This document shows, one piece after another, positions 8,556 to 35,054 of a stretch of 64,000 nt of DNA (the stretch's first letter is position 1; each line of letters starts with the position of its first letter). Origin of the DNA: Elusimicrobia bacterium RIFOXYA2_FULL_39_19 (GTDB lineage Bacteria > Elusimicrobiota > Endomicrobiia > CG1-02-37-114 > XYA2-FULL-39-19); contig MGVC01000013.1 in assembly GCA_001800285.1 (NCBI GenBank), positions 79,175 to 143,174 on the forward strand, in the 5' to 3' direction. A model generated the notes under the pieces. The model worked only from the letters and a program-made list of their open reading frames with translations. It did not search any database and had not been told where the DNA came from. The position numbers and the translations under genes were made by a program.

Positions 8556-8660
8556 GTGTTTTCACCTCCTATCCAGGTATATAATTGGGATTATATATAT
8601 AAAGCCCCAAACCTAGTACTATTATTATACTACCAATATGTTAAAAAATCAATGCTTTTC

Positions 8661-9887: not shown

Positions 9888-9904
9888 ATTTAAAGCCTCT
9901 TAGT

Positions 9905-10999: not shown

Positions 11000-11015
11000 T
11001 TGTTTCTCCTAATTT

Positions 11016-12770
11016 TTAAATTGATTCAACATCGGTATCACCAGTAGTCACTCTCATGACCTCTTCTACTGTAGTGGTCCCGCCTATTAACTTTCTTAAA
11101 GCGCTTTCTCTCAAAGTCAACATACCTTTTCTTCGGGCCATCTGTTTTATTTTATGTGTTGGTTCTTTATTTAGAAGAAGGTCTCTTAATTCATCGCACA
11201 TTTCAAGAATTTCGTAAGCGCCAATTCTGCCCTTGTATCCCTTTGAGCAATGTTCACATCCTTTACCCCTGTATAAAACTACATTTTGTTTGTTCCCCAC
11301 CTGATCCGGTTTAACTCCCAGAGGAATTAAATGTTCTAATGGGACTTCATATGGTTCCTTACAGTATTTACATATGGTTCTAAGCAATCTTTGTGCAATA
11401 ACCATTATTATTGTCGATGAACTTAAAAACGGTTCCACCCCCATATTTGATAAACGGGTTACGGTGCTTGCAGCATCATTTGTATGCAACGTAGCAAAAA
11501 CTAAGTGACCGGTAAGTGCGGCATTAATAGCTATTTCAGCAGTCTCTTTATCACGAATTTCACCTACAAGTATAATATTTGGGTCCTGTCTTAAAAAAGA
11601 ACGCAATCCGGCCGCGAATGTAAGGCCTATTTCTGACCTTACGTGAACCTGGTTGATTCCTTCTATCACAAATTCAACAGGGTCTTCGATAGTTGATATG
11701 TTTATGTCTGGATGATTTAGTGTAGTTAATGCCGAATAAAGAGTGGTTGATTTACCGCTGCCAGTAGGGCCTGTTACAAGATTTATACCAAATGGCATTT
11801 GAATGTTTTTTTCAAATATCGCTAGTGTTTCGGGTTCCAGTCCCAATTTATGCAGGTCTACGCACAAAGAACTTGTGTCCAAAATACGCATGACTACTTT
11901 TTCTCCGAAGGCCATGGGAAGAATGGATACACGGAAAGAAACTTCCTTGTTGAGTAATTTAATTTTTATTCTTCCATCCTGCGGTAAACGATGTTCCGCT
12001 ATATCCATTTTTGCCATGATTTTGATTCTTGATATAAGCGCATTTTGAAATTTCTTTGGCGGCGGTTGCTGTTCATGCAATACACCGTCAACCCTAAAAC
12101 GCACTCTTAATGTTTTCTCATATGGTTCTATATGGATGTCGCTGGCTTTTTGTTTTACAGCGCTTGTTAAAATAAAATTTACTATTTTTACTACCGGGGC
12201 TTCTTCAGACTGGAGTTCCAGGGATAAAGAATCCTGATCTTCTTCTTTTTCTTTAACTACTTCAATATCAACATTTTCAATTGCTTGTTCAATATCTTTC
12301 AGAACTGTATCAAACGATGATTTCGTAGTATAATACTTTTCAATAGTTTCTTTTATTTCTTTTTCCGAAGATATTACTACGCTGATATCGTAACCCGTCA
12401 TAACTTTTAAATCATCTATTGCAAATATATTAAACGGATCACACATTGCTATGGTTAAAGTTTTACCTTTTTTCTCGATAGGTATTAAAGTCTGGTGTCT
12501 GATAATGCTTTCAGGTACTGCCTTCAAAACTTCTTCTGGTATTTCGCCGAATTCCTGTAATGATATAAACTGCATGCCTGCTTGTTTTCCAAGAAAAGTC
12601 AAAAGAACTTCTTCAGTTACATAATTTAATTGCATTAGTATATGGCCTAATTTGCCTCCAGATTGTTTTTGAATCTCAAGGGCTTCCTTAAGCTGTTCCG
12701 GGGTTAATATACCCAGATTAACAAGCATTTCGCCAAGTTTCTTTAGTGGTATTACTTCTTTTGTAGACAT
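11016..12770 (-). CDS. pilB: Type IV pilus extension ATPase PilB.
   Basis: 584 aa with an N-terminal GSPII_E_N domain and Walker A motif GPTGSGKSTT. A C-terminal tetracysteine motif is present (CKYCKE...CEHCSKG). Its start overlaps the coaD 3' end by 19 bp. Confidence 0.85.
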   Translation of the reverse strand: MSTKEVIPLKKLGEMLVNLGILTPEQLKEALEIQKQSGGKLGHILMQLNYVTEEVLLTFLGKQAGMQFISLQEFGEIPEEVLKAVPESIIRHQTLIPIEKKGKTLTIAMCDPFNIFAIDDLKVMTGYDISVVISSEKEIKETIEKYYTTKSSFDTVLKDIEQAIENVDIEVVKEKEEDQDSLSLELQSEEAPVVKIVNFILTSAVKQKASDIHIEPYEKTLRVRFRVDGVLHEQQPPPKKFQNALISRIKIMAKMDIAEHRLPQDGRIKIKLLNKEVSFRVSILPMAFGEKVVMRILDTSSLCVDLHKLGLEPETLAIFEKNIQMPFGINLVTGPTGSGKSTTLYSALTTLNHPDINISTIEDPVEFVIEGINQVHVRSEIGLTFAAGLRSFLRQDPNIILVGEIRDKETAEIAINAALTGHLVFATLHTNDAASTVTRLSNMGVEPFLSSSTIIMVIAQRLLRTICKYCKEPYEVPLEHLIPLGVKPDQVGNKQNVVLYRGKGCEHCSKGYKGRIGAYEILEMCDELRDLLLNKEPTHKIKQMARRKGMLTLRESALRKLIGGTTTVEEVMRVTTGDTDVESI

Positions 12771-15381: not shown

Positions 15382-15415
15382 TATTTATTTGTAATTAGAA
15401 AAAACGGTCAATTGT

Positions 15416-15444
15416 TTGCATTTTTTGATATTTGTTTGTATAAT
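15416..15444 (+). promoter_or_regulatory. Sigma-70-type promoter, TTGCAT-N17-TATAAT, upstream of rpmB.
   Basis: Read directly from the sequence. It is followed by an RBS (GGGAGG) and the rpmB ATG at 15479. Confidence 0.4.
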
Positions 15445-15478
15445 TAGAACTCATAAAATAAAAAATCCGGGAGGATTT

Positions 15479-15670
15479 ATGTCATATAAATGTGTTGTCT
15501 GCAGTAAAGGCCCAAGAGCAGGAAAGAGTATCAGTCATTCAAAAAGAGCCACAAACAGATTATTCAGGCCCAATTTACAGAAATTAAGAATAAAGTTTAA
15601 AGGTGTAGTGCAGAAATCATATGTTTGTACAAGATGCCTGAGATCAAACAAAGTAGAAAAAGCACTGTAA
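15479..15670 (+). CDS. rpmB: 50S ribosomal protein L28.
   Basis: MSYKCVVCSKGPRAGKSISHSKRATNRLFRPNLQKLRIK... is L28-like. The ORF-track entry 15416..15670 begins at an upstream TTG; the true start is the ATG at 15479 after the RBS. Confidence 0.8.
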   Translation: MSYKCVVCSKGPRAGKSISHSKRATNRLFRPNLQKLRIKFKGVVQKSYVCTRCLRSNKVEKAL

Positions 15671-15671
15671 T

Positions 15672-17387
15672 TTATATAATCTGCAACTGATGAAGCCTTC
15701 TGTAAAGGCCCTCTTTTTTAAAAAGCTCTTCATGAGTTCCTGTATCAATAATATTACCGTTTTCTAAAACAATTATTTTATCTGCTTTCTTTATTGTGGC
15801 CAATCTGTGTGCAATAATGAGTGTGGTTCTTCCTTCCATTAAAGTTTCCAGTGCCTGCTGAACCATCTGTTCAGATTCTGCATCGAGATTACTTGTAGCT
15901 TCATCTAAAAGCAATATTTTTGGATTTCTTACAATTGCCCTGGCAATTGCTATTCGCTGTTTCTCACCTCCGCTTAAAAGCACACCTCTTTCACCAACTA
16001 ATGTATCATAACCTTTTGTTGTTTTTGTTATAAAACCATGTGCCTGTGCAAGTTTAGCTGCATTTTCTATTTCTTCCTGCGTTGCATCAGCATTTCCGTA
16101 AGCAATGTTATAGCGTATGGTTTCATTAAACAGTATGGTTTCTTGAGTAACAATAGCCATTTGTGACCTGACTGATTTTAGGGTTGCTTCCTTAGTATTA
16201 AAACCATCTATTTGAATAATTCCACCTGTTGGATCATAAAATCTCAATAACAAATTTATTATTGTAGACTTGCCTGATCCAGACGGGCCCACAATAGCCA
16301 ATGCCTGCCCCGACTTTACTTCAAAATTGATTTTCTTTAATACCGGGTGATCTTTGTCATAATTAAAACTTACATCAACAAATCTTATTTTATCTTTAAG
16401 CTGAGGCATATCCTTTGCATCAGGTACTTCAGTTATCTCTGGTGGATGATTTAAAAATTCAAAAATTCTCTCGCTGGCAGACATGGCCTGCTGTATTTGA
16501 GGATTAAGGTTGGCAAAATTTTTTATCGGCTGATAAACTGAAAATGCTGCTGCAAAAAATGCAAAGAATGACCCTGGTGACCATACTCCGGATATAACAT
16601 CTTTACCTGCAAAAAACAATACTATACCTACGGAAAATGCGCCCATAAATTCCATAAGCGGTGAGGATAAGGCTTCAATTTTAGTAAACCTCATTACCAG
16701 AGTATATAAAGACCAGTTTATTTTCTTAAACCTCTCTATCTCTGTTTTTTCACGATTAAATGCTTTTGTAATATTTATTGCCATTATTGATTCCTGCAAA
16801 TTAGTATAAACTTCTGCCATTTGTTTCTGACCTTCTTTTGATAAAAGCCTCAGCCTTCTGGTAAAATTCACAATCGGTATTGATACAAAGGGCAGTACAA
16901 TGAATGTTATAAGCGCAAACTTCCAGTTCAGGTAAAACAATATTCCTATTAATACGATTACAGTTAACCCATCGCAAACAATAGTGGCTGGTGCTCTGTT
17001 TAAGGCAAACTGCAGAGCCGTGATGTCATTAGTTAAACGGGACATGATCTTTCCCGTAGTACCTTCAGAATAAAACCTGGTAGAAAGACACTGCAGTTTT
17101 TCATAGGTTTCGTTTCTTATAGAAAGTGTCATTCTCTGGGCAATGTATGACATGAAGTATGTTTTTGCATAGTTAAAAAGCCCTAGTAGAAAATAAGCCA
17201 GCGGAATTGCAAAAACTATAAGGTATAGTGAATGAACATCTTTTGCAATAAAGACCTTATCTATCATTGGTTTTAGCAAGTAACGTATAACACCCGTAAG
17301 GCCAGACACAATAAGCATGCAAAAAAGCGCTACTGCAAACCGGGCTTTGTAATGTTTGAAATACTCATACAATTGTTTAAAAATCAT
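15672..17387 (-). CDS. msbA: ABC transporter permease/ATPase, MsbA-like lipid A exporter.
   Basis: 571 aa with fused TMD and NBD. Walker A is GPSGSGKST and the ABC signature is LSGGEKQR. It is adjacent to lpxB. Confidence 0.7.
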   Translation of the reverse strand: MIFKQLYEYFKHYKARFAVALFCMLIVSGLTGVIRYLLKPMIDKVFIAKDVHSLYLIVFAIPLAYFLLGLFNYAKTYFMSYIAQRMTLSIRNETYEKLQCLSTRFYSEGTTGKIMSRLTNDITALQFALNRAPATIVCDGLTVIVLIGILFYLNWKFALITFIVLPFVSIPIVNFTRRLRLLSKEGQKQMAEVYTNLQESIMAINITKAFNREKTEIERFKKINWSLYTLVMRFTKIEALSSPLMEFMGAFSVGIVLFFAGKDVISGVWSPGSFFAFFAAAFSVYQPIKNFANLNPQIQQAMSASERIFEFLNHPPEITEVPDAKDMPQLKDKIRFVDVSFNYDKDHPVLKKINFEVKSGQALAIVGPSGSGKSTIINLLLRFYDPTGGIIQIDGFNTKEATLKSVRSQMAIVTQETILFNETIRYNIAYGNADATQEEIENAAKLAQAHGFITKTTKGYDTLVGERGVLLSGGEKQRIAIARAIVRNPKILLLDEATSNLDAESEQMVQQALETLMEGRTTLIIAHRLATIKKADKIIVLENGNIIDTGTHEELFKKEGLYRRLHQLQII

Positions 17388-18484
17388 TTAGTTTTCTCCA
17401 TAATTAATCGCGCGGTGCGTTCATAGCACCCCGGGTTTCCCAGGATGTTCCTGATATGCCTGAATTCGGACTTCATATCTTCAAGTTTTGAAATATTTGC
17501 TAGATAATCAAGTGTTTTTCCAGCTATTAATTCCGGATCTGCTTTATCCTGGATATATTCAGGTATAATTTCTCTTCCGGCTAAAAGATTGGTAATAGTC
17601 ACATTTTTAACATTTATCATTATTTTTATAATTATATAGGTAAGCCAGGGCAAGTGATACATAACAATCATTGGAATTTCCAGCAAGGTATTTTCCAAAG
17701 CTACTGTACCGCTTGTTGTTATTGCCATATCTATTTTTTTTCTGGTCTCATTATTCTCATCAAACACTACTTTAATATCACTATGCTGTTTATAGCAGTC
17801 TTCCAGAGATTTCATGCCAAATATTTTAAATTCAATATTTGGATATTTGATTCTTATGCGTTCTGCTGTTTTATTCATTATTGGTAAGTTCCAGTTTATT
17901 ACTTGTTTTCTGGAACCAGGGAAAAGACCGATAGTAAAAGATCCTGTTTCAGGGCTTCTAACCGGTTTCTTTTCAACTTTTGCAATAGAATCAAGGACAG
18001 GATTGCCCACAAATGTTACCGGTACACCTGCTTTATCATAGATTTCTTTTTCAAATGGAAAGATTACAAACATATGATTTACTGCATTTTTAAGTCTATA
18101 TACTCTTTTGGGTCTTGTAGCCCATACTTGCGGGCTTATGAAGTAATAAACAGGTATATTTAAGCTTTTCGCGGCTTCTGCCAGATTGATGTTAAATCCA
18201 TAAAAATCTACAGTAATAACAGCTTTAATGTTGTTTGTTTTAAGGTATGGAATAATGCGGTTCTTTATCAGATATTTAAGGGCAATGCTATGTTTTATCG
18301 GTTCCCATAAACCGTGTAGATTCAAATCGACAATATTATAAATAAAGGAATCGCTTGCTAGACGCAAGTGTTTACCTCCAATGGAAGATATTTTTAGGTT
18401 CTTGTTGAGTTTTTTAAGTTCCAGGGCAAGTTTAGAGGCGTGAAAATCGCCGGAAGGGTCCCCAGCTGATATTAAAATGTCCAT
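17384..18484 (-). CDS. lpxB: Lipid-A-disaccharide synthase.
   Basis: 366 aa. The N-terminus MDILISAGDPSGDFHASKL is typical of LpxB. Confidence 0.8.
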   Translation of the reverse strand: MDILISAGDPSGDFHASKLALELKKLNKNLKISSIGGKHLRLASDSFIYNIVDLNLHGLWEPIKHSIALKYLIKNRIIPYLKTNNIKAVITVDFYGFNINLAEAAKSLNIPVYYFISPQVWATRPKRVYRLKNAVNHMFVIFPFEKEIYDKAGVPVTFVGNPVLDSIAKVEKKPVRSPETGSFTIGLFPGSRKQVINWNLPIMNKTAERIRIKYPNIEFKIFGMKSLEDCYKQHSDIKVVFDENNETRKKIDMAITTSGTVALENTLLEIPMIVMYHLPWLTYIIIKIMINVKNVTITNLLAGREIIPEYIQDKADPELIAGKTLDYLANISKLEDMKSEFRHIRNILGNPGCYERTARLIMEKTK

Positions 18485-18489
18485 ATTCC

Positions 18490-19428
18490 TTAGGTATGCA
18501 GGTGTATTTTGTTCAATACTTCAAGAGCTAATACTAAGGCATCTTTACCATATTCGCCGGTAACAAGTGGTTTCTTATCTTCCCTGACACACTCGATAAA
18601 GTGTTCCAGTTCTTTTTTCAACGGTTCAATCCGTTCAACTTTTGGGCTGGTTATTTCAATATCTTTCAATGATTCCACCTGCGGTTTCTTTTTTGTATAA
18701 ATCCTGAACCGCTGGGTCGGATAATCAACAGAAATATATGCGGTAGACTGGAATATGCGTAATTTTCTGTATTTGCCCATAGTAACACGGCTGGCTGTGA
18801 GATCCGCAACGCATCCATTATGAAATCTAAGCCTGATTTTGGCAATATCTTCATGTTTTGAAAATATTCTGGTTCCGTAAGCTTCAACATCCTTTACTTT
18901 ACTGCCTACAAGAAACGGCACAATGTCCAGATCATGAATCATGAGATCCAGTACTACGCCCACGTCGGATACTCTGGGATCATACGGCCCTAATCTGTCA
19001 GTTTCTATGAATTTTGGCTGATCAATATATTTCTGAAGGGCTAAAATAGCTCCATTAAATCTTTCTATGTGTCCTATCTGAAGCACGGTACCTTGTTTTT
19101 GCGCCAGGTGTATTAGCTCTTCAGCATGTTCAACAGATGTTGTGAATGGTTTTTCAATAAGGCAGTGTTTACCTGCCATAATAACTTCTTTGCCTATTTC
19201 ATAATGCATTGAAGTAGGTACGACAATACTTACAGCATCTGCATTTTTTATGGCTTCCTTGTAATCAGAGAAAGCATTTGTCTTAAATTGGGAAGCAATT
19301 TTTTCAAGCCGTTTTGGGTTTACATCTACTACACCTGTAAGGTTAACTCCGGGCATGGTGGAATAGTTTCTGGCATGATGCTGACCCAGATTTCCTATCC
19401 CTATCACGCATACATTAATTGGTTTCAT
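18490..19428 (-). CDS. Gfo/Idh/MocA-family NAD(P) oxidoreductase embedded in the lpx cluster (GnnA-like?).
   Basis: 312 aa. N-terminal Rossmann motif MKPINVCVIGIGNLGQHH is present. Its position between the LpxI-like gene and lpxB is the basis for the GnnA suggestion. Confidence 0.7.
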   Translation of the reverse strand: MKPINVCVIGIGNLGQHHARNYSTMPGVNLTGVVDVNPKRLEKIASQFKTNAFSDYKEAIKNADAVSIVVPTSMHYEIGKEVIMAGKHCLIEKPFTTSVEHAEELIHLAQKQGTVLQIGHIERFNGAILALQKYIDQPKFIETDRLGPYDPRVSDVGVVLDLMIHDLDIVPFLVGSKVKDVEAYGTRIFSKHEDIAKIRLRFHNGCVADLTASRVTMGKYRKLRIFQSTAYISVDYPTQRFRIYTKKKPQVESLKDIEITSPKVERIEPLKKELEHFIECVREDKKPLVTGEYGKDALVLALEVLNKIHLHT

Positions 19429-19431
19429 TGT

Positions 19432-20262
19432 CTATTTCTCCCAAGATACGCCAACTATGGATATTCTATGCTTATCTGCCATTTTTAATACTCTTTCTTT
19501 TTCAATAATACAGGTTTTACCCGATTCAACAGCTATAGCGGATGCTTTGATGTGTTTCATGACTTTAATGGTTCTGGGCCCTATTACAGGTAGGTCAAAA
19601 CGCAAATCCTGATGCAGTTTTGCTACTTTTATTATTACATTGCCAGTTCCGGAAAGTTTACCGGACCTTAGAATACAGTAATCTGTGCCTTCCAAAGCTT
19701 CTACCGCTACAACACATTTATTTTTTACCACTATTGTCTGGCCTATATCAAAACGGGACAAATCTTTTACAAGAGAAAAACCAAAACTGATATCTTCTTG
19801 GTGTTTTGGCTCAGGCTTTATTGAATTTAGTATTCCCTCGCTGGCAAGATGACCTTCCAAGAGCGGCAGAATAGGCATTAATTCTAATCCCTGATTTTTA
19901 AAAACATTACCTATAGCTCCAAGAATGGAATCCGCCCTTTTATCTTTAATGGAATCAAACATCTGTTTTGTTATTTCATCCATTTTTATGGAATTATCAA
20001 AAAGCCTCTGATGGCTTACTAATCCGGCCATGAGTACCTTATTCACATTAACAGATTTGAAATACTCCATTGCAAAACCCAACGTACCCAGCGGAAACAA
20101 TTTAAAATCAACTGAATACTTTTTGATATCTTTATTGGTTTCACCCTTAAAACCAGCGGCATAGATATCTGTTTTGGGTGCGTACTTTTTTATATTTTCC
20201 ACTATTAGTACAGGAAATTTTCCTCTGCCGGAAATTATGCCTATTCTTGTAGGTAAGTCCAT
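19432..20262 (-). CDS. lpxI: DUF1009-family protein, putative UDP-2,3-diacylglucosamine hydrolase LpxI.
   Basis: 276 aa. It lies between lpxA and lpxB, as lpxI does in Caulobacter. No LpxH-like gene is seen in the cluster. Confidence 0.5.
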   Translation of the reverse strand: MDLPTRIGIISGRGKFPVLIVENIKKYAPKTDIYAAGFKGETNKDIKKYSVDFKLFPLGTLGFAMEYFKSVNVNKVLMAGLVSHQRLFDNSIKMDEITKQMFDSIKDKRADSILGAIGNVFKNQGLELMPILPLLEGHLASEGILNSIKPEPKHQEDISFGFSLVKDLSRFDIGQTIVVKNKCVVAVEALEGTDYCILRSGKLSGTGNVIIKVAKLHQDLRFDLPVIGPRTIKVMKHIKASAIAVESGKTCIIEKERVLKMADKHRISIVGVSWEK

Positions 20263-20264
20263 GG

Positions 20265-21050
20265 TTATTTTGTTAAAGCAGTGTGACAGATGCCTCTTTT
20301 TGACGATTTTATAAAATTAATTAGGTGTGTTACTTCTGCACCCATTTTTTCTTCTTCATTCATTTTTTCTATTGCTTTTAAAGCTTCCGTAAATATTGTT
20401 TTAGATTCAAACAGCATCCAATATGCTTTTTTAAGATTTCTTATAGCCACCGGGCTAATACCGTTTCTTTTTAACCCTACTCTGTTTAAACCATATAGTA
20501 CAGCCCTGTCACCATTTGCTAGCATGTACGGCAGAATATCCTGCGTTATCATACAACCGCCGCCTATCATTGAAAGCCTACCTATGCGAACATACTGATG
20601 CGCGGCTGCCAGGGCTCCTAAAATAGCTCCTGTCTCAACCATGACATGGCCCCCTAGAGACGCACAATTCGCCATGTAAATATTATCTTCAAGAACAGAA
20701 TCATGGCCTACATGTGAATATGCCATAAGAAAGCAATTATTACCCATACCTGTAACTTCGTTAATTGATCCCCTATGAATGGTAACAAACTCACGTATGT
20801 TATTGTTATTGCCAATAACTACTTTATTGTCTCCACCCTTGAATTTCATATCCTGTGCATCATTGCCTATAGCTGCGTGGTTTGATATTTTGTTGTTTTC
20901 ACCAATTTCACTGTATTGAATAAATGTATAAGGGCCTACAGAGCAATTTTTACCAATTGTTACATTTTTTCCTATGATTGCATAAGGGCCTATTTCTACT
21001 GAAGGGTCCAGCTTTGCTGTTTTGTCAATTATTGCCGTATTGTGTATCAT
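20265..21050 (-). CDS. lpxA: UDP-GlcNAc O-acyltransferase.
   Basis: 261 aa with left-handed beta-helix hexapeptide repeats (IGPYAIIGKNVTIGKNCSVGPY...). Confidence 0.8.
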   Translation of the reverse strand: MIHNTAIIDKTAKLDPSVEIGPYAIIGKNVTIGKNCSVGPYTFIQYSEIGENNKISNHAAIGNDAQDMKFKGGDNKVVIGNNNNIREFVTIHRGSINEVTGMGNNCFLMAYSHVGHDSVLEDNIYMANCASLGGHVMVETGAILGALAAAHQYVRIGRLSMIGGGCMITQDILPYMLANGDRAVLYGLNRVGLKRNGISPVAIRNLKKAYWMLFESKTIFTEALKAIEKMNEEEKMGAEVTHLINFIKSSKRGICHTALTK

Positions 21051-21067
21051 ATTATCTCCAAAAAATA

Positions 21068-21526
21068 TTATTGGGCTTGTTTATCAACAACAATAAACAT
21101 AAACTCAGTCTCAGTAATCAGCTCTCCATTTATGAATGCCTCTCCCCGGACTGTTCCTGATCTACCGCGGGCCCTGAGAACTTCAATTTTTAATTCTATT
21201 GTGTTTGGTGGAAATGCGGGCTTGCGGAATTTTGTTTTATCTATGGTCATAAAGTAAGCTAGTTTATCCGATAAATCCGTCCTTGAAAGGAACAATACGC
21301 AGGCGGTCTGTGCTAATGCTTCTACAATTAATACTCCCGGCATTATAGGGTTTCCAGGAAAATGACCTTTTAAAAAATCTTCATTTCCTGTCAGGATTTT
21401 TTTTCCAATGGCTGATTTCCCAGCTTCGGTAACTGTTACCTTATCAATCATCAGAAAAGGCTCTCTGTGCGGAATGAACTTTTTGATTTCATCTACATTC
21501 AACTCGCGATTTATGATGTTTTCCAT
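21068..21526 (-). CDS. fabZ: 3-hydroxyacyl-ACP dehydratase FabZ.
   Basis: 152 aa hotdog-fold protein. The motif HFPGNPIMPGVLIVEALAQ is canonical for FabZ. Confidence 0.8.
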   Translation of the reverse strand: MENIINRELNVDEIKKFIPHREPFLMIDKVTVTEAGKSAIGKKILTGNEDFLKGHFPGNPIMPGVLIVEALAQTACVLFLSRTDLSDKLAYFMTIDKTKFRKPAFPPNTIELKIEVLRARGRSGTVRGEAFINGELITETEFMFIVVDKQAQ

Positions 21527-21527
21527 T

Positions 21528-22391
21528 CTACATACCTCTTTGTTTAGATTTAATTTGGTCTTTTATCAAATTTACAAAATTAATATTGTGTTTATGCCCT
21601 GAACAACTAGCTTTTATATGTGCCTTTAACGGTTTACCCAGCAAATAAAAATCACCGATGATATCAAGTAATTTATGCCGTACGAATTCGTTATTATATC
21701 TTAATTTTTGAGGATTGTGAATTTTATCAAGACCTATGATTATTGCATTATCTAAATTTCCGCCTTTTGCAAGGCCTTTTTTTGCAAGTGCTTCTATTTC
21801 AAAATCGAAACAAAAAGTTCTTGCTTTTGATATTTCGTTGATAAATATTTCAGAAGTTATTTTAAGTTCAATTTGTTGAGTGCCTACTAGCGGATGGTTG
21901 TAAATAATTGTGTAATCAACAACAAATTCATCACTTGGTGTTGCTGTTATTTCGACTTTTACTTTATCGTCGGAAATGTATTCAATAGGCTCAGTAATCC
22001 TTATATATTCCTTTGGAGCATCTAATTCTACAATCCCGGCACCTAAAAGATAATCAACAAATGGTTTTGCGCTTCCATCGAAAACCGGAGGTTCATTATT
22101 GTTTAGCAAAACCTGCATATTGTCAATACCTAACCCGCTAAATGATGCCAACAAGTGCTCTACAGTATAAACCATAGGGATTTCATTTATGCCTATAGTT
22201 GTTCCTCTTAATATATCCTGAACATTTTCTGCTAATGCGGGTATGACAGGACTGTCTTTTAAATCCGTCCGTATAAATTTAATTCCGTAGTTTATTGGTG
22301 CCGGCCTTAATGTCATTTTAGTTTTATTGCCTGTATGCAAGCCGATTCCTTTGATTGTGATTTCTTTTTTTATGGTTTTTTGCTTATCCAT
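21528..22391 (-). CDS. lpxC: UDP-3-O-acyl-GlcNAc deacetylase.
   Basis: 287 aa. The motif KQKTIKKEITIKGIGLHTGNK is an LpxC N-terminal signature. Confidence 0.85.
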   Translation of the reverse strand: MDKQKTIKKEITIKGIGLHTGNKTKMTLRPAPINYGIKFIRTDLKDSPVIPALAENVQDILRGTTIGINEIPMVYTVEHLLASFSGLGIDNMQVLLNNNEPPVFDGSAKPFVDYLLGAGIVELDAPKEYIRITEPIEYISDDKVKVEITATPSDEFVVDYTIIYNHPLVGTQQIELKITSEIFINEISKARTFCFDFEIEALAKKGLAKGGNLDNAIIIGLDKIHNPQKLRYNNEFVRHKLLDIIGDFYLLGKPLKAHIKASCSGHKHNINFVNLIKDQIKSKQRGM

Positions 22392-22396
22392 AAATA

Positions 22397-23212
22397 TTAT
22401 TTACCTCTAAGTCTTTCTAATACTTTATCGGTTAGATCTGTTCCACCAGTACCATAAAGTATGTTTGATTTTTCTATTACTATGGAAATATCTTCTTCTT
22501 TGGCTAGTTCTTCTATGATTTTGTAAAGTTCTCCTATTAAAGCCATTGTCCTGTTTTTTTCATAATCCTTTAAAGCCTTATCTGATTTCTTTTTCAAAGA
22601 TGTGTTTTCTTGTTGTTTTTTTAATACAGCATCTTTTATTAGTGCTATTTCTGTTTCCTTTTCGCTTATTCTTCTTTGAATATCTTCAATATTCGGTACA
22701 TTTTCCTGACTTTGTATTGATGAAGGGGGTGGCGGAGGTGGTGGCAAATAAGTTGTTGCCGGCGGGGGCGGTGTTGTTAGAGGCATATCGTTAATAGCTA
22801 CAGTTGTTTCGTTAGTTAGTGTTTGTGATGATACCTGAACAGGAACATTTTCAGTAAATGTCGTAGTTGAGTTTTCTAATAACTGGCGCTGTTTCTGCTG
22901 TTCCATATAAACAACCCTGTTTTTTGCAGCAATCAACTCCTGTTTTAATTGTTTTAGCTGTGTTTCAGATTCCGTAGCTGACGATTTTAATATTTCTATA
23001 TCGGTGGCTAATTTTTCAAACTCAAGTTTTTTATCGTTTTTGAGTTTTTCATAATCCTGTTTTGCTGTTTTTACTGGAGGGTAGTATTCGAAAAGCTTAT
23101 TCATGTCTACATAACCCATAGACATACCTCCTATACCCTGAAGCGGAATTTCAATTGCGTTAACCCCTGAAACAAAAACTGTAAACATTATCAAAAACAG
23201 AATATTTCTCAT
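22397..23212 (-). CDS. skp: Skp/OmpH-like periplasmic chaperone with a central polyproline insert.
   Basis: 271 aa with a signal peptide and coiled-coil-rich sequence. It sits immediately downstream of bamA. It is unusually long and contains PPPPATTYLPPPPPPPS. Confidence 0.5.
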   Translation of the reverse strand: MRNILFLIMFTVFVSGVNAIEIPLQGIGGMSMGYVDMNKLFEYYPPVKTAKQDYEKLKNDKKLEFEKLATDIEILKSSATESETQLKQLKQELIAAKNRVVYMEQQKQRQLLENSTTTFTENVPVQVSSQTLTNETTVAINDMPLTTPPPPATTYLPPPPPPPSSIQSQENVPNIEDIQRRISEKETEIALIKDAVLKKQQENTSLKKKSDKALKDYEKNRTMALIGELYKIIEELAKEEDISIVIEKSNILYGTGGTDLTDKVLERLRGK

Positions 23213-23249
23213 TCTATTCTCCGTTATAAAAACTATGTTTATATTATTT

Positions 23250-25532
23250 TTAGAATATCTGTCCTATTGAAAAATAAAATTCCGGAGGATTTCTGCCGTT
23301 TTTAACCTGCACGGGCCAGCCCCAGTCCAATCTGATTGGAAATACGGGAGTTGTAAACCTGATACCAAAACCCCAGCCGGATTTCATATAATTATCCCAT
23401 CCGGCATTTGTTCTCCACTGTTCAGTCTCACCAATGATAAATTTTACGTCTCTGTAACTTGCCCAGGCACCTCCAACATCATAGAAAAAAGCGCCCTGAA
23501 GAATAGTTCTTCTGTTTTCCTGGACTATAGGAAATTTATATTCGAAGTTTGTAACAATCATCACTTCGCCGCCGTTTGGTGGCCCTAGTTCATTGTAGGA
23601 ATAACCTCTTATTGAATCCGGGCCGCCTGAGAAGAATTTATAATTTGACTGCAGGTTATAATCGCGCAGAGCCTCTACATATCCTACAACAGCATTTGCT
23701 GAAAACACAAACTTCCAAAATGTTGGAATAAACCAGCTTGATCTGACAACCGGTTTTAAAAAGTGTACATCACCTTTAAAATCACAACCAGCTAACTGTA
23801 GAGACAAGGAATTCTTGCTTCCTCTAGAAGGATCAAAGATATTATCTCTTGAATCATAAATCAGCTGACCTGTAAAACTTGATGTTAATTCTAATACAGG
23901 TGAAATATATGTATTATTTGTTGTTGGATCTACTTGAACGTCATAAATTTGTTGTTTATCATATCCGTATATAAATTGTAATGAAAGATAATCAGTAATT
24001 CTTGGCCCCACCCTTATTTCACTGCCTTGTTTATGGCTTGAATATGCAAAATTATTGTTTATATATTCCTGCCTTGTAAGATCATATAAACTCAAACCTA
24101 AACTTATTTTTTTTCCTAAAAACCACGGCTCTGTCCATCCGATTTCATAATTTTTTCTTCTGTCACCAAATTCCCAAAGTAAATTCAAGCGTTGTGCTCT
24201 GCCAAACAAATTCATATGATTTACTTGTAAAGTACCTACCAACTTATCAACGCTTGAATATCCTGCACCTGCCTGGAGCATGCCTGGTTTCCCTTCTGTA
24301 ATACCTAATACCAGGTCCGCTGTATCTCCGGTATTTGATGGCTGAATATCTACTTTTGCTTCATCAATAAATCCCAAATTATATATTTTTTCTACTGACC
24401 TACGTAACTTCACTCCGCTAAAAGGATCACCTTCCTTTAGCAGGACTTCACGCCTTATTACATATTCCTTTGTAGTTATTAATCCATCGATATATATTTT
24501 ACCTAAATAAATAAGGTTGTTTTCCGTGATATTAAAATTTACATCTATTAAACCTTGTTCCGGATACTTGGTATATTTCGGAACGATTTCTGCTCTTAAA
24601 TATCCCTTATCGCTATAAAGTTCTGCCAAAAGCGATTGAGTAAGCTCTATATTTTCCTTTTTGTAAATCTGTTTAGATTTTAAAATTATATCCTTTCTTA
24701 ATTCTTTTTCAGTATAAATTGAGTGTCCGGAAAATGTAATGTTAGCTATTTTATACTTTGGGCCTTCAATTACATTTATATTTATAGTAGCCTTTGTTCT
24801 TTCTTCATTAAATGTGATTGTAGGAGAGGATACTTCGACACTCTCAAATCCGTTGTTTTTATAGAAATTCTCAATTTTTACAAGGTCTTCATTTAAAACT
24901 TTTGAAAGATACTTTTTCTTTCTCTTTGTCTCCATCAACTTTACAATTTTTTTAGGTTTATATTTTCTTGTCCCGGATATTTCAATTTTCTCTACTGTTA
25001 CTTTTCTTCCTTCAGTTACAAAAAAAGTTAATGTTGCTTGATTTTTTGTTTTATCCATTGATAATTCATGTACAATTTTAGTGTCTGCATAACCGGCATC
25101 ACCATATTTATCAAGTATTTTCATTATATCAGGTTCTATCTGTGATTTGTCGAGGTATTCTTTTTCCTTTACTGCAATTTCTTCTTTTAGCATTCCTTTG
25201 CCAAATTTTTTATTGCCTTTGAAATCTATTTTTTTGACATATATTTTTTCTAATATTGCAAAAGTAACTACGTATGTATTCGTGTCCACTTCTACAGTAA
25301 CATCATCAAAATATCCTAAAGCTAAAACATTATTTAGGTCAGTTTTTAGGTTTTCCGAAGAATAATATTCACCGGCTTTTGTTTTAATGGCTTTACGGAT
25401 TACCTTTTCTTTTATGTTTAAATTTCCTTTAATGTCAATTCGTGATACTTTTGATAATTCTGCAATCGACATTGTGTTTAATGTAAATAATAATATTGTT
25501 GCAATAAGGCATTTTTTTCTAAACATTTTCAT
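23250..25532 (-). CDS. bamA: Outer membrane protein assembly factor BamA (Omp85).
   Basis: About 760 aa with POTRA repeats and a C-terminal 16-strand barrel ending ...FYFSIGQIF. The start is probably MKMFRKK at 25532 rather than the upstream M at 25586. Confidence 0.8.
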   Translation of the reverse strand: MKMFRKKCLIATILLFTLNTMSIAELSKVSRIDIKGNLNIKEKVIRKAIKTKAGEYYSSENLKTDLNNVLALGYFDDVTVEVDTNTYVVTFAILEKIYVKKIDFKGNKKFGKGMLKEEIAVKEKEYLDKSQIEPDIMKILDKYGDAGYADTKIVHELSMDKTKNQATLTFFVTEGRKVTVEKIEISGTRKYKPKKIVKLMETKRKKKYLSKVLNEDLVKIENFYKNNGFESVEVSSPTITFNEERTKATININVIEGPKYKIANITFSGHSIYTEKELRKDIILKSKQIYKKENIELTQSLLAELYSDKGYLRAEIVPKYTKYPEQGLIDVNFNITENNLIYLGKIYIDGLITTKEYVIRREVLLKEGDPFSGVKLRRSVEKIYNLGFIDEAKVDIQPSNTGDTADLVLGITEGKPGMLQAGAGYSSVDKLVGTLQVNHMNLFGRAQRLNLLWEFGDRRKNYEIGWTEPWFLGKKISLGLSLYDLTRQEYINNNFAYSSHKQGSEIRVGPRITDYLSLQFIYGYDKQQIYDVQVDPTTNNTYISPVLELTSSFTGQLIYDSRDNIFDPSRGSKNSLSLQLAGCDFKGDVHFLKPVVRSSWFIPTFWKFVFSANAVVGYVEALRDYNLQSNYKFFSGGPDSIRGYSYNELGPPNGGEVMIVTNFEYKFPIVQENRRTILQGAFFYDVGGAWASYRDVKFIIGETEQWRTNAGWDNYMKSGWGFGIRFTTPVFPIRLDWGWPVQVKNGRNPPEFYFSIGQIF

Positions 25533-28500
25533 TTTTCCTTTTCTCCAGTTTCTTTCTTTTGTTCTTTTGACCAGCCAAAACGCCATTGTGGCTCTATGCG
25601 TATTTGGTATTCACCGTCTTTAAACCATGAACTTTGATTTGGTTCAAACCCGTATATTCCTCTGACAAATATATTTCCTTTCCATCTATAAGCAAGTTCG
25701 AATTCGTGTTTTAGGTCTAATTTTTTTTGTTTTTCACCTAAAGTTAAGGCATATCCTAGAAGCAAATCTCCTGTTAAATATTTTTCTAGCGTGTATTTTG
25801 TTCCTGAAAATATATCTACCATCGTAGGGTTATCTGTAGGACTTGTGTCTGTATCAGTTGTTGATGTAGGTACAGTTGTTACTCTCATAGTATCTGCTAT
25901 TCCGCTTTTTTGTAGTAATTTTCTTGCCAGAGGTGACGCAAGAGAAGCATCAAATAACCTTACCAGCTGTTTTCTGAGAACCATATTTTGTTCGCTTGGG
26001 GTCATATTTTCTGTTATCCCGTATGTAGCTGAAACGAGTTTTTCAGAAGTCATATCGGGTCTGTCTCTGGACGTAAATTGAGGCGCAATTTGGCCTATAG
26101 GGCTTCTTGGAATTATCATTTCTACTTTTCCTACTTCTTTAGCCGTAGAACCTGATTCGATGCCTGATGAAAACAAGCCTGTAGTCTCAGTGCGTGCCTG
26201 CAAGTAACATTCATTATTTATAACCTCAAATAAAGCCTCTTTTATTTCAAAAACTTTATCTATGTAACTTATGTTTCCTCTTCTTGATTCTATGTTGCCG
26301 TTTACAGTTATATCAGGATAATTACCCGCAAGATTTAATTTTCCTCCGATATTAACACTCATTAAATCACTATCGTACCAGGTATTTTCTCCGGCCCTCA
26401 AATCCATGTTCCACTTTAAACTTCTTATTGAGCTGGTAAAAATACTTCCCTTTGGAGCATTTTTGGGAGGCGGGTACGAAAAATGGGTATTATCAAGCTC
26501 GATATATCCGAGCATTTTTACGTCATTTTTTTTTCCTATTATTTGCAAGTCTATTTTTGGCTCACCAAAAGAATAGTTTTTTATTACTGTTTCGAGACCT
26601 GTTGATTTAAACAATGGATTTGTAGGAATTGGTAGTTCTTTTATGAATACTTTTATGCCTTTTTTATCAGGAGTTATTATTTTCAAGTTATACTCATCAA
26701 TATTAAAAAGCTCACCTAAGAGCATATAACCTTCAATTTCTATTTTCCCATCACCTACTTTTGCCGAACATTTTTTAATATCCAGTTTATTGTCAGAAAA
26801 TGTTATGCCTACATTTAATTTCTGCATTTTATCAAAATAATTTGATGACTGTATTTCTCCTTCTGATATTATCAGATATCCTCCGTAAGAAGGTCTGTCC
26901 GAGGGGCCTGATATCTGTAATTTTGCGTCAATTTTACCGCTAGCTGTTTTTATTTCTTCAGACATTGATTTCAATATGGAAAGGTCGCCTTTTTCAATGT
27001 CAAAAGATAATGAGATATCCTTATTATTCAGTGGGTATTTTTGTTCATCAATTGTTATTGGTACACTGCCTTTACAAGAAAGGGCCAATTGTTCTTTTCC
27101 TGTAGCATTATCTATCTTCACAAGTCTTGAATTAGGTATTTCAAGAATAAAATTATTGTAAGTAAACTGAATATTTGCATTTGTAAAAGGTATTGAATAA
27201 AATTCGCCCGCAGAAACATTCAATGAACCGGTTATATAAGGCTTTTCAATATGTCCTTTATAAATTACCGTAAAATCCGTATACCCATTTAAAGGCAGCT
27301 GCAAATCAATTATGCTTGAAATAAAATCAAGGCTTATATTTGTGCCTTCGGCTGACAGGTTTGAATTTGTTTTTGTAAAATTACCGTTTAGTTTAAAATC
27401 AGCATTATTAGAGCCTTTTGTATATCTGTAATTTATATTTGAAAATATTATTTTATCCGAATCAGAAAAATCAATCTTACCGGAGAGAACACTATCCTGA
27501 TCTTTTAAAGGCATAAATTCTATTTCTTTTTTAGAATTCTTGTTATTGAACTGCACTTTTAGGTTTGTGTTTTTTATGTTTTGCTGATTTATCCAGAGAT
27601 TATCTATGTTTATGAGAGATGTAATAAATATGTTGTCGTTATTCGTATTTATTTCACCGGATAGATTAATGTTACCAAATATATTTAGTGGTTTTATATT
27701 AAAATTTTTTGTGCTCAAACCTGCTTTATATTTTACGGAATTGTTTCCAAAATCAATTACACTATCTTTGGTTATAGATATTTTTTGGTCATCTGATTCA
27801 ATATCAAAGCGTATGATTTTTGCTTGATTCATCTCATTATTAAATTCAGTAATGATACTTAACCCAGTCCAATGTTTGGGAAGGATTTCAGCGTCATAAA
27901 TTAACCCTGCTGAATTTAAAGATATTGTAGTTATCGGAGCTTTTAGGCTTCCTGTTATTTCAAACATAGAATCTATTTTTCCTTCGAGTGGAAGACTGAA
28001 ATTGATAAGATTTGTTAATATTTTATTAAATGAAAGCATATCCATGGAATTGAAGGAAACAGTTGAATTTATTTCTGGATTTTCCGTTATTTTAATTATA
28101 TTCATATTAAATAAACCTTTTTCTTTTGTGTCTGTTTTAATATCTCCGGATATTTTTAGTGAATCCGAAGCAAATTGGCCTTTACCATTTAATTTAAGTT
28201 TCATTTTTTTTAAGGTAATATTATCCGAATTACCATAAAAGTATATTTCAGGCTTTTTTAATGTCCCCACTATTTTTGCATTGCAATTCATATTTCCTGT
28301 AAGTTCTGATACGTTCAATCTGCTTAGGTCGTAATTTTCTATAGCAATATTTCCGCTCAGTTCCTGGTTTTTCGTATTACAAATCATGTTTAATTCTGCA
28401 GATTTATTTATTTTTAAGTCGCTTATTGTAATCATGTCCTTTACATAGACAATACTGCCGGCTATTTTATCTGTGTAATATTTATTAATAATAACATTTT

Positions 28501-30061
28501 CACCGGACAAATTCCCAGTAAAGGAAAAATCTGTCATATTTATCTTACCAAGCATGCTAATACGTCCGGTAAGAGGTATTTTTTCAAAAACATAGTTATT
28601 GAGTTTCATGGTTATATTAAAATCGTTAAAGATGTTTTTTTTTAAACCTGAGTAAAAAGATAATTCTACTACAGGTATTATTTTATTTGCTTCAAATAAC
28701 CGGCAATTTGCAAGGGTTAACTGGTCATTATTTACATTAAAACTTCCTGTAAATTTGCTTAATCCGCTTATATCAAAATTTCCGGAAAACCTGGAAACAT
28801 TATTAAAACTGTTCTGTGTTGCATTTATTGACAGTTTATACTTTTCATTGTTGTGAAGGACATTCCCGGATACTTTTAACATTTTGTCTTTGAAGGTCAA
28901 ATCTATTTTTGTTTGTTTTATTGATAACGTTTTGTTTTCATTACTCATTTCTTCTGAATTAATCCTTGCTGTTATGACAGGTCTTTTAAATGATCCCGTT
29001 ACATAACATTCCACATCAGCCTTTCCGGACATTGATTCAATAAAGTCCTTTATTACTATATTTGTCGCTGTTGCCCTTAAGTTAAACTCGTCGCTTCTTA
29101 TGTTTCCATTCATGTTAAGTCTTGAGTCATCTTTAGATAAGGTCAAATCTTTTAATTCAAATGTATTACTTGAGAAAACAATGTCTACAGATCCGTTATA
29201 ATTTTTGTTTTTATATTTCACTGATAACGGGTTTAGTATTGCTTTAAAATCCGGTTTTGTGAAAATTCTGTCTATGTAAAACACGCCATTACCTGTTAAA
29301 GATAGACTTTCATTTGATTTTGTATCTATTTTAATAACACCGCTTAAAGTATTGCCCGCAGGATAATCTCCGTGCAAATCAAATATTATATTTGTATTGT
29401 TTATGGTTTTTTTTGCTTTTGTAAATAAGATTTTTTTTTCAAGTGTTAGCGGAAACCCGTTTGAATCAATTTTTAAACGCCATTTTTTTTCAGAGTTATC
29501 AGCTACAAGTTTTATTTTTGCAGCCCCTATGTCCTTTATTTCAATATCTGAATCCAATGAATTCATTTTATCTGAAAGATTTATTCTTCCGAAGCTGCTG
29601 TATATAACCTTATTTAATTTAACGATGTTTATGGTTGCATTTTTCCAGTTAAATCTGAAATCAGTATTGTCATTGTTTGTTGCAGATATACCTATAGGAA
29701 TATTGTTCGTATTATCTATAGTTATATTGGGTTCATAAAGATAGATATTTGATAATGCTTTTTGAGTGTTTTTTGATTTTAAAAGTCTGAAGGGATTAAA
29801 GTATAAATACAATTTTGCAGCATTTAAACTTGAATTGCCTTGAATCAAAGAAATATTTTTTAAGACTATTGAAGGCGGAAAGGACATATATATTGAATCT
29901 GCCTTAAAAATAATATTTTTTTCCGCAAAGTACAGAGTGGCGTATTTACCTGCTATTCCCGGTAAATATAAAAAAAACAAGTAAAATCCAGAAATTATTA
30001 CCATTGCTGCGATTGATAATAATATTAATAACCTTTTTTTCATTAAAAGTGACCCGCACAA
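25529..30061 (-). CDS. tamB: TamB/AsmA-like giant inner-membrane-anchored periplasmic protein.
   Basis: 1510 aa with an N-terminal TM anchor and a long repetitive beta-rich body. Its stop abuts the bamA start. Confidence 0.55.
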   Translation of the reverse strand: MCGSLLMKKRLLILLSIAAMVIISGFYLFFLYLPGIAGKYATLYFAEKNIIFKADSIYMSFPPSIVLKNISLIQGNSSLNAAKLYLYFNPFRLLKSKNTQKALSNIYLYEPNITIDNTNNIPIGISATNNDNTDFRFNWKNATINIVKLNKVIYSSFGRINLSDKMNSLDSDIEIKDIGAAKIKLVADNSEKKWRLKIDSNGFPLTLEKKILFTKAKKTINNTNIIFDLHGDYPAGNTLSGVIKIDTKSNESLSLTGNGVFYIDRIFTKPDFKAILNPLSVKYKNKNYNGSVDIVFSSNTFELKDLTLSKDDSRLNMNGNIRSDEFNLRATATNIVIKDFIESMSGKADVECYVTGSFKRPVITARINSEEMSNENKTLSIKQTKIDLTFKDKMLKVSGNVLHNNEKYKLSINATQNSFNNVSRFSGNFDISGLSKFTGSFNVNNDQLTLANCRLFEANKIIPVVELSFYSGLKKNIFNDFNITMKLNNYVFEKIPLTGRISMLGKINMTDFSFTGNLSGENVIINKYYTDKIAGSIVYVKDMITISDLKINKSAELNMICNTKNQELSGNIAIENYDLSRLNVSELTGNMNCNAKIVGTLKKPEIYFYGNSDNITLKKMKLKLNGKGQFASDSLKISGDIKTDTKEKGLFNMNIIKITENPEINSTVSFNSMDMLSFNKILTNLINFSLPLEGKIDSMFEITGSLKAPITTISLNSAGLIYDAEILPKHWTGLSIITEFNNEMNQAKIIRFDIESDDQKISITKDSVIDFGNNSVKYKAGLSTKNFNIKPLNIFGNINLSGEINTNNDNIFITSLINIDNLWINQQNIKNTNLKVQFNNKNSKKEIEFMPLKDQDSVLSGKIDFSDSDKIIFSNINYRYTKGSNNADFKLNGNFTKTNSNLSAEGTNISLDFISSIIDLQLPLNGYTDFTVIYKGHIEKPYITGSLNVSAGEFYSIPFTNANIQFTYNNFILEIPNSRLVKIDNATGKEQLALSCKGSVPITIDEQKYPLNNKDISLSFDIEKGDLSILKSMSEEIKTASGKIDAKLQISGPSDRPSYGGYLIISEGEIQSSNYFDKMQKLNVGITFSDNKLDIKKCSAKVGDGKIEIEGYMLLGELFNIDEYNLKIITPDKKGIKVFIKELPIPTNPLFKSTGLETVIKNYSFGEPKIDLQIIGKKNDVKMLGYIELDNTHFSYPPPKNAPKGSIFTSSIRSLKWNMDLRAGENTWYDSDLMSVNIGGKLNLAGNYPDITVNGNIESRRGNISYIDKVFEIKEALFEVINNECYLQARTETTGLFSSGIESGSTAKEVGKVEMIIPRSPIGQIAPQFTSRDRPDMTSEKLVSATYGITENMTPSEQNMVLRKQLVRLFDASLASPLARKLLQKSGIADTMRVTTVPTSTTDTDTSPTDNPTMVDIFSGTKYTLEKYLTGDLLLGYALTLGEKQKKLDLKHEFELAYRWKGNIFVRGIYGFEPNQSSWFKDGEYQIRIEPQWRFGWSKEQKKETGEKEK

Positions 30062-30065
30062 TGAG

Positions 30066-32570: not shown

Positions 32571-32578
32571 TTTAGACC

Positions 32579-35037: not shown

Positions 35038-35054
35038 TTTAATTCTCCTTGTTT

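Follow-up and report, generated by a model that had tools for sequence, protein, structure and literature searches.

A tamB-bamA-skp-lpx gene cluster with LpxI and a GnnA-type dehydrogenase, and a predicted 2,3-diaminoglucose lipid A, in an Elusimicrobia genome

The locus described here lies in a 64,000-nucleotide stretch (hereafter the window) of contig MGVC01000013.1, from the metagenome-assembled genome (MAG) of an uncultured groundwater organism, Elusimicrobia bacterium RIFOXYA2_FULL_39_19. Ten open reading frames (ORFs) run head to tail on the minus strand over positions 15672-30061, in the order tamB-bamA-skp-lpxC-fabZ-lpxA-lpxI-[Gfo/Idh/MocA]-lpxB-msbA, where the bracketed gene encodes an oxidoreductase of the Gfo/Idh/MocA family. 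Together they form a probable envelope-biogenesis cluster for outer-membrane protein assembly and early lipid A synthesis. Genes were assigned from Pfam and NCBIfam profile scans, which support all ten ORFs. An initial annotation, made from the letters alone, had named the genes from bamA to msbA in this order; each ORF is present on the minus strand where it was placed, and the profile scans agree with each assignment. The genes, and the one that bounds the cluster downstream, are as follows.

25529-30061, minus strand: tamB-like gene, inner-membrane translocation/assembly, 1510 aa, TTG start; NCBIfam TamB 76 bits, E 1e-21.
23250-25586, minus strand: bamA, 778 aa; five POTRA domains and an Omp85 barrel (Pfam); TIGR03303 510 bits against a cut-off of 297.
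22397-23212, minus strand: skp/OmpH-like gene for a long-form periplasmic chaperone, 271 aa; Pfam OmpH matched in two stretches, 57.8 bits against a cut-off of 32.4.
21528-22391, minus strand: lpxC, UDP-3-O-acyl-GlcNAc deacetylase, 287 aa; Pfam LpxC 318 bits over the whole profile; TIGR00325 274 bits against a cut-off of 187.
21068-21526, minus strand: fabZ, 3-hydroxyacyl-ACP dehydratase, 152 aa; NF000582 152.8 bits against a cut-off of 113.
20265-21050, minus strand: lpxA, acyl-ACP:UDP-GlcNAc (or UDP-GlcNAc3N) acyltransferase, 261 aa; NF003657 311 bits against 226, TIGR01852 295 bits against 231.
19432-20262, minus strand: lpxI (formerly DUF1009), predicted UDP-2,3-diacylglucosamine pyrophosphatase, 276 aa; Pfam LpxI_N and LpxI_C.
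18490-19428, minus strand: predicted gnnA-type UDP-GlcNAc 3-dehydrogenase, Gfo/Idh/MocA family, 312 aa; best phmmer and Foldseek match 7BVJ.
17384-18484, minus strand: lpxB, lipid A disaccharide synthase, 366 aa; Pfam LpxB 247 bits; TIGR00215 214 bits against a cut-off of 190.
15672-17387, minus strand: msbA-type lipid A/lipopolysaccharide (LPS) flippase, ABC exporter, 571 aa; best NCBIfam match TIGR02203 (MsbA_lipidA), 559.5 bits, slightly below the cut-off of 602.
15479-15670, plus strand: rpmB, ribosomal protein L28, 63 aa, recognized from its translation; convergent with msbA, bounding the cluster downstream.

BamA, LpxC, FabZ, LpxA and LpxB each exceed the cut-offs of curated equivalog models, and MsbA falls slightly under its own. 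A Pfam-A scan of the 1510-aa tamB-like protein returned no family at E ≤ 0.001, though the precomputed Pfam matches for the identical gene in another record of this locus (L001) are TamB and TamB_N. The genes tamB, bamA and skp adjoin one another in the same direction, and relatives carry OmpH versions of 263-313 aa at the skp position. The TamB/BamA/Skp module is widespread, and in diderm Firmicutes the lpx clusters include lpxI but lack lpxH (Antunes et al. 2016, PMC5007114). The bamA start as called overlaps the tamB-like ORF, itself opened by TTG, by 58 nt, and the true starts of both are uncertain. In the order of transcription from tamB to msbA, the intergenic distances are -58, 37, 5, 1, 17, 2, 3, 5 and -4 nt. 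The earlier description of 1-5 bp gaps or overlaps throughout was thus nearly right, the exceptions being bamA-skp (37 nt) and fabZ-lpxA (17 nt). The genes are co-directional and tightly packed, and are probably co-transcribed. Nine contigs that carry the identical oxidoreductase have the same gene order, as do two relatives that are 73-76% identical, which indicates that this order is not an assembly artefact. The rpmB gene lies in the 290 nt that would otherwise form a 'gap' from msbA to recG. It is absent from the L001 gene list and is called at the same spot in the two relatives (L090 and L092) as a 63-aa Ribosomal_L28. The window is AT-rich (G+C about 29-43%) and matches scaffold_26 (229 kb) of a metagenome assembly from Rifle groundwater; tRNA and Rfam scans of its 64 kb found neither tRNAs nor Rfam families.

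The oxidoreductase matches Pfam GFO_IDH_MocA (107.6 bits) together with C-terminal domains. When compared with PDB sequences by phmmer, it aligns over its whole length to 7BVJ and 7BVK (E 8e-59), whose title reads 'UDP-N-acetylglucosamine 3-dehydrogenase GnnA from Acidithiobacillus ferrooxidans'. A Thermotoga dehydrogenase comes next, at 3e-21. An AlphaFold (AF2) model with a mean confidence (pLDDT) of 88.8 gives the same result: Foldseek against the PDB places 7BVJ first (E 1e-32, TM-score 0.83), followed by a match at 3e-23. The margin of GnnA over the next PDB match is therefore 38 orders of magnitude by sequence and 9 by structure. Identity is 37% to the A. ferrooxidans GnnA and 27% to the next solved relative, 3EZY. 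In a neighbor-joining tree, the A. ferrooxidans enzyme falls within a clade made up of the window protein and 80 homologues, while co-resident paralogues and 3EZY lie far outside. Among 17 Elusimicrobia homologues 51-76% identical to the window protein, the GxGxxG motif (G10/G12/G15), E92-K93-P94 and the DLMIHD motif (D161...H165) are invariant, indicating purifying selection. Of the NCBIfam models, only that of the archaeal UDP-GlcNAc 3-dehydrogenase gives a strong match (292 bits, full length); an inositol dehydrogenase model scores 138 bits. The protein is thus, as judged by sequence and predicted fold, a GnnA orthologue and a predicted UDP-GlcNAc 3-dehydrogenase. Its membership in the GnnA family, which the initial annotation had proposed, is borne out in that phmmer, Foldseek and the tree all group it with the characterised GnnA and not with unrelated Gfo/Idh/MocA dehydrogenases. 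The identical NCBI entry A2252_03345, annotated as a 'hypothetical protein', can accordingly take the name GnnA-type UDP-GlcNAc 3-dehydrogenase.

The gene directly upstream encodes a protein with the two-domain architecture of LpxI, scoring 87.6 bits with LpxI_N and 154.3 bits with LpxI_C (both Pfam cut-offs 25). Residues 7-273 align with the Caulobacter LpxI structures 4GGM and 4J6E (phmmer E 4e-17). These two structures differ at a single position, an aspartate in the former ('RVDLPTIG') that is alanine in the latter ('RVALPTIG'), where the window protein reads 'RFDLPVIG'. We take 4J6E to be the catalytically impaired D225A mutant, presumably that of Metzger et al. 2012. The mutated aspartate corresponds to D223 of the window protein, and is invariant in all 25 sequences aligned (the window protein, Caulobacter LpxI and 23 LpxI proteins of related loci). 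E188, G192, T193, R199, K212 and R221 are likewise invariant in this alignment, and the window protein keeps the motifs DIGQ, AVEAxEGTD and RxDLPxIG. The initial annotation had allowed that its assignment of this DUF1009 protein to LpxI would fail if the catalytic residues were missing; they are kept, D223 among them, so that objection falls away. The gene starts 2 nt after lpxA, and the gnnA-type gene intervenes before lpxB, so that lpxI lies between lpxA and lpxB. In cleaving UDP-2,3-diacylglucosamine, LpxI attacks the beta-phosphate and LpxH the alpha-phosphate (PMC4807358). From its domains and residues the window protein is assigned to LpxI, as a distant member of the family.

The genomic context of the oxidoreductase was surveyed with a profile of the protein run against one genome per GTDB species, which gave at least 598 relatives; the best 80 loci (L006-L085) were kept, and their neighbours were counted by iterated profile searches of six-frame ORFs. 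These loci cover about 14 phyla and include Elusimicrobiota, Omnitrophota, Verrucomicrobiota, Nitrospirota, Acidobacteriota, Planctomycetota, Gemmatimonadota and Desulfobacterota, as well as Gamma- and Alphaproteobacteria, Ignavibacteria, KSB1, Binatia and Hydrogenedentes. Of the 80, 57 have an lpxB gene, and in 42 it lies no more than 400 nt downstream of the gnnA homologue. lpxI is found in 23, mostly immediately upstream of the gnnA homologue, and an msbA homologue often follows lpxB. Loci from Nitrospirota, Acidobacteriota and Desulfobacterota have the order bamA-skp-lpxD-fabZ-lpxA-lpxI-gnnA-lpxB-msbA. The presence of the oxidoreductase inside the lpx genes had been regarded as unusual, but this is its normal site, with lpxB directly downstream in most of the 57 loci that have it.

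The arrangement as a whole is also a common one. The initial annotation had described the cluster as non-canonical, with lpxC in the usual lpxD position, a description that takes E. coli as its reference. The E. coli-type order bamA-skp-lpxD-fabZ-lpxA-lpxB is indeed not seen here: lpxC comes 5 nt after skp, and lpxI and the gnnA-type gene separate lpxA from lpxB. However, lpxD-lpxC-fabZ-lpxA-lpxI-lpxB has been published as a common order (PMC3087551, PMC5007114), and is the order in three other Elusimicrobia (L010, L011 and L013). More generally, lpxD-lpxC-fabZ-lpxA-(lpxI)-lpxB is the common cluster in many non-proteobacterial phyla, with lpxI between lpxA and lpxB (Opiyo et al. 2010, PMC3087551). 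The window locus fits this lpx(D)-C-fabZ-A-I-B type, minus lpxD, and its gene arrangement is not unusual. Nor is the combination of LpxI and GnnA new, since Caulobacter, from which the characterised LpxI comes, is listed among the bacteria whose lipid A contains 2,3-diamino-2,3-dideoxyglucose (GlcN3N) (PMC8036547). An E. coli-centred view of the 'canonical' gene order is thus misleading, as the window arrangement is near the common one in many phyla.

This context bears on whether the dehydrogenase serves lipid A at all. A true UDP-GlcNAc 3-dehydrogenase could instead supply another glycan, for example by providing UDP-GlcNAc3NAc or ManNAc3NAcA to glycans of the O-antigen, capsule or S-layer in the manner of the WbpB/WlbA or archaeal pathways, while lipid A keeps an ordinary glucosamine (GlcN) backbone. 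The archaeal model that is the only strong NCBIfam match belongs to a pathway other than that of lipid A, no gnnB adjoins the gene, and two Wzy_C (O-antigen ligase-like) genes and a glycosyltransferase gene lie ~15-20 kb away. However, the oxidoreductase gene begins 3 nt after lpxI and ends 5 nt before lpxB, and its adjacency to lpxB recurs in most of the 80 loci in ~14 phyla, a pattern not easily accounted for if it were an O-antigen enzyme. Among characterised proteins the nearest is GnnA, an enzyme of lipid A synthesis, and the 29 PDB matches at E ≤ 1e-10 include no chain under the name WbpB or WlbA. Based on these observations, a role in another glycan seems improbable, and a role in lipid A is favored.

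The transaminase GnnB, the partner of GnnA, is not encoded beside it. Across the survey, a DegT-type gene (gnnB; identified by PF01041 at 422 bits) occurs within 10 kb in 11 of the 80 loci and directly between gnnA and lpxB in nine, and none is nearby in the other 69. Among those that have it are the Nitrospirota locus of MAG MFD01299.bin.1.129 (L057; lpxA-lpxI-gnnA-gnnB-lpxB-msbA) and two Geobacter loci (L037 and L050; lpxA-gnnA-gnnB-lpxB). In A. ferrooxidans, too, gnnA and gnnB reportedly lie between lpxA and lpxB. The nearest evidence of a GnnB partner within the phylum comes from an Endomicrobium contig (L009, positions 4061-6876), where the order is DegT-DUF4019-gnnA-lpxB. This contig is 15 kb long and carries no other part of the lpx cluster. 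M. loti offers a documented case of an unlinked gnnB.

By Pfam, essentially all ORFs of at least 100 aa in the 64-kb window include no lpxD, no lpxH or metallophosphoesterase and no DegT aminotransferase. A tblastn search with LpxD and DegT queries against the six frames of the window gave only a weak hexapeptide cross-match on lpxA. Both results confirm the initial annotation, which had found neither lpxD nor lpxH in the window and no adjacent DegT gene. None of lpxD, gnnB and lpxH was found in the 10 kb past either end of the window, so that ~85 kb of the 229-kb scaffold has been covered in all. That LpxI acts instead of LpxH, as the initial annotation proposed, is a claim on the whole genome, of which these ~85 kb are a part, and is a prediction. 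Three genes in this region were considered as candidates and rejected. A 258-aa metallophosphoesterase (L088, positions 306-1082) is of the YmdB type and adjoins RNase Y, and is not LpxH. As substitutes for GnnB, the class IV aminotransferase at 34159-35154 is IlvE and the one at 49946-51349 belongs generically to class III; both fall outside the DegT type and are unlinked to the cluster. An LPS-transport gene, lptE, lies outside the cluster, beside holA and leuS ~1-2 kb past the window end (L088, positions 7935-8498).

The failure to find gnnB in these ~85 kb could also mean that the gnnA-type gene is kept in an incomplete or partly used pathway, one that lacks a functional GnnB or has a non-selective LpxA. 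The backbone would then be GlcN-GlcN or a GlcN3N-GlcN hybrid, as in Campylobacter and Capnocytophaga. Such hybrid backbones are documented (PMC3342949), and inactivation of gnnA/gnnB is viable in Campylobacter (PMC8036547). Set against this are the catalytic motifs, which are invariant across the 17 Elusimicrobia homologues, and the tight coupling of gnnA and lpxB, which is conserved. A partly used pathway therefore seems unlikely, slightly more so than service to another glycan, and a GnnB encoded elsewhere in the genome is preferred.

The only local peculiarity of the cluster is the absence of lpxD. In other, more distant Elusimicrobia, lpxD lies immediately upstream of lpxC (L010, L011 and L013, and L007 with insertions). 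In the window and its closest relatives (L090 and L092, 73-76% identity), lpxC directly follows skp with no lpxD between. Three independent assemblies agree on this, and lpxD has left the cluster in this sublineage. An assembly artefact was rejected as the cause: contigs from ENA, JGI and NCBI, which are independent, share the skp-lpxC junction, as do the two related MAGs. The adjoining lpxC and fabZ also vary among close relatives. They are separate genes in the window, 1 nt apart (21524-21530) and in different frames, and are separate in L092 too, whereas in L090 (76% identical, positions 6992-8344) they are fused into a single LpxC/FabZ of 450 aa. This looks like a recent fusion or fission. 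The window LpxC and FabZ both score best against the NCBI model of the bifunctional LpxC/FabZ.

The simplest reading is that lpxD is unlinked, and it is expected elsewhere in the genome. Protein searches with a profile of the LpxD proteins of L011, L013, L007 and L010, and with P0230 from the closest lpxD-carrying species, returned no RIFOXYA2_FULL_39_19 protein among the best 120 matches listed in either case. These lists are filled by gut Elusimicrobiaceae or Omnitrophota at 54% identity or more, so that a 50%-identical LpxD would not appear in them. A further protein, P0336, was considered as the LpxD of this MAG and rejected, as it belongs to another organism with the order bamA-skp-lpxD-lpxC/fabZ-lpxA-lpxI. 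The same data could be read as a true loss of lpxD from the genome, such that another enzyme N-acylates the sugar or an unusual lipid A lacks the 2-N-acyl chain. The conserved lpxD slot is empty in three related assemblies, and none of the best 120 matches listed for the Elusimicrobia LpxD queries is attributable to these Rifle MAGs. Yet LpxC, LpxI and LpxB are present, and their substrates or products need the LpxD step; moreover, the match lists are saturated by other lineages and the genome examined amounts to ~85 kb. Genome-wide loss is thus very improbable, far more so than either of the alternatives considered above, and relocation of lpxD is preferred.

The preferred reading is of one envelope-biogenesis cluster that combines outer-membrane protein assembly with the early Raetz pathway of lipid A, in which GnnA directs the backbone wholly or in part to GlcN3N and from which lpxD has moved out. 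In this pathway, GnnA would oxidise UDP-GlcNAc at C3 with NAD+, and a DegT-type transaminase GnnB, encoded elsewhere, would convert the product to UDP-GlcNAc3N. LpxA would carry out the first acylation on this acceptor, N-acylating position 3. LpxC would then take off the 2-N-acetyl group and LpxD, also encoded elsewhere, would N-acylate position 2, with FabZ acting at the 3-hydroxyacyl-ACP branch point. LpxI would hydrolyse the UDP-diacyl sugar by attack on the beta-phosphate, releasing UMP and giving an analogue of lipid X, which LpxB would join with a second UDP-diacyl sugar. After later steps encoded outside the cluster, MsbA would flip the product. TamB, BamA and Skp, encoded in the same direction, would handle outer-membrane protein assembly. 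The predicted product is a lipid A with a backbone wholly or partly of 2,3-diamino-2,3-dideoxyglucose and with amide-linked 3-acyl chains. The gene identities, the catalytic motifs, the grouping with GnnA and LpxI and the conserved order are observed; from them we infer the enzyme activities, the co-transcription, the GlcN3N backbone and the presence of gnnB and lpxD at other sites in the genome, and GlcN3N lipid A in this organism is a prediction.

Several observations weigh against this reading. The oxidoreductase score of 292 bits falls short of the equivalog cut-off of 450 in the only NCBIfam UDP-GlcNAc 3-dehydrogenase model, which is archaeal and not of a lipid A pathway. The neighbor-joining tree is rough, with no bootstrap and few outgroups. 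The window LpxI matches the NCBIfam equivalog model NF047836 over its full length with 99.9 bits (E 1.6e-28), and does not reach the cut-off of 400. This cut-off is presumably tuned to close, alphaproteobacterial relatives and would gauge closeness rather than define the family; the score far beneath it marks the protein as a distant LpxI family member. A GnnB/DegT gene is missing from the ~85 kb of scaffold examined, and no LpxD of this MAG is among the best 120 matches listed, in lists saturated at 54% identity or more. A promoter and terminator scan of 15200-30400 was at chance (62 against 64.8 in shuffled sequence, and 13 against 9.2) and says nothing on operon structure. With these points taken into account, we still regard the cluster as probably serving a GlcN3N-containing lipid A.

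The locus turns into a testable prediction for an uncultured phylum: an LpxI-dependent Raetz pathway, probably with a 2,3-diaminoglucose backbone and amide-linked acyl chains. No description of Elusimicrobia lipid A was found in literature searches. Amide-linked acyl chains are resistant to O-deacylation, and in Campylobacter low activation of TLR4 has been tied to GnnA/GnnB (PMC8036547). The coupling of gnnA and lpxB in most of the 80 loci in ~14 phyla, 69 of them without a nearby gnnB, leads to a wider suggestion. Amide-linked GlcN3N (or hybrid) lipid A may be usual in a large part of the uncultured diderms, the groundwater Elusimicrobia making it by way of LpxI and a relocated lpxD. This is put forward tentatively, as a possibility with rather less than an even chance. 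A bolder version would give the GnnA-type enzyme a role tied to LpxB that needs no GnnB.

The remainder of the window contains several other recognizable loci. Directly upstream of tamB lies clpC-mcsB-mcsA (30066-34143, minus strand), encoding ClpC, an arginine kinase and its UVR-motif activator; this set is best known as a stress module of Firmicutes. Downstream of rpmB are recG and coaD, and then a complete type IV pilus locus (2471-12770, minus strand) with genes for PilB- and PilT-like ATPases, PilC, a pilin bearing an N-methylation motif, a prepilin peptidase and PilM/N/O, together with an unassigned 156-aa ORF and an AMIN-domain secretin. The pilus locus is followed by the two Wzy_C genes, one at 1055-2458 and one just past the window. 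A group at 43180-46746 (minus strand) encodes a galactokinase-family GHMP kinase (469 aa, unusually long), a sugar epimerase that depends on NAD and whose best match is TviC/GalE-like, and a DUF4922 protein of 399 aa. These genes may form a module that salvages or activates sugar 1-phosphates for envelope glycans. Two minus-strand ORFs, of 681 aa (56656-58701) and 168 aa (55019-55525), have no Pfam or NCBIfam match. They flank genes for a UxaE-like protein (tagaturonate epimerase family), a xylose-isomerase-like TIM barrel and a transketolase. The only long plus-strand block of the window (48796-51349) encodes a GSU2086-family protein (317 bits, over the cut-off) followed by the class III aminotransferase.

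Several known systems resemble the window locus in part. The gnnA/gnnB system of A. ferrooxidans (Sweet, Ribeiro & Raetz 2004, as cited in PMC5644692 and PMC8036547) has the same Gfo/Idh/MocA UDP-GlcNAc 3-dehydrogenase, associated with lpxA and lpxB, 37% identical over its full length, with the same motifs and the best structural match. It differs in that the window has no gnnB after gnnA and has lpxI upstream of it. LpxI of Caulobacter crescentus (Metzger & Raetz 2010; 4GGM/4J6E) shares with the window protein the two-domain form, the position between lpxA and lpxB and the catalytic aspartate. The two proteins are nonetheless distant, as the phmmer E value of 4e-17 and the score under the NCBIfam equivalog cut-off indicate, and in the window gnnA lies between lpxI and lpxB.

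At the level of the cluster, the arrangement of Opiyo et al. 2010 (PMC3087551) shares lpxC-fabZ-lpxA-lpxI-lpxB with the window, where lpxC and fabZ are nearly fused, lpxD is absent and gnnA and msbA are added. The outer-membrane locus of diderm Firmicutes (PMC5007114, and Heinz et al. 2015 as cited there) likewise has tamB-bamA-skp followed by an lpx cluster with lpxI and without lpxH. The Firmicute locus is far larger (lpxACDIBK, waaA, kds, lpt and ompM), and the account in PMC5007114 does not report gnnA in it. The core lpxA-lpxI-gnnA-lpxB-msbA is shared with the Nitrospirota locus L057 and with L020, L059, L069 and L076. These five retain lpxD and have no lpxC in the cluster, and L057 adds gnnB beside gnnA. 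Rather than a new mechanism or class, the window locus thus combines already-described enzymes, LpxI and a GnnA-type dehydrogenase as assigned here, in a widely shared order.

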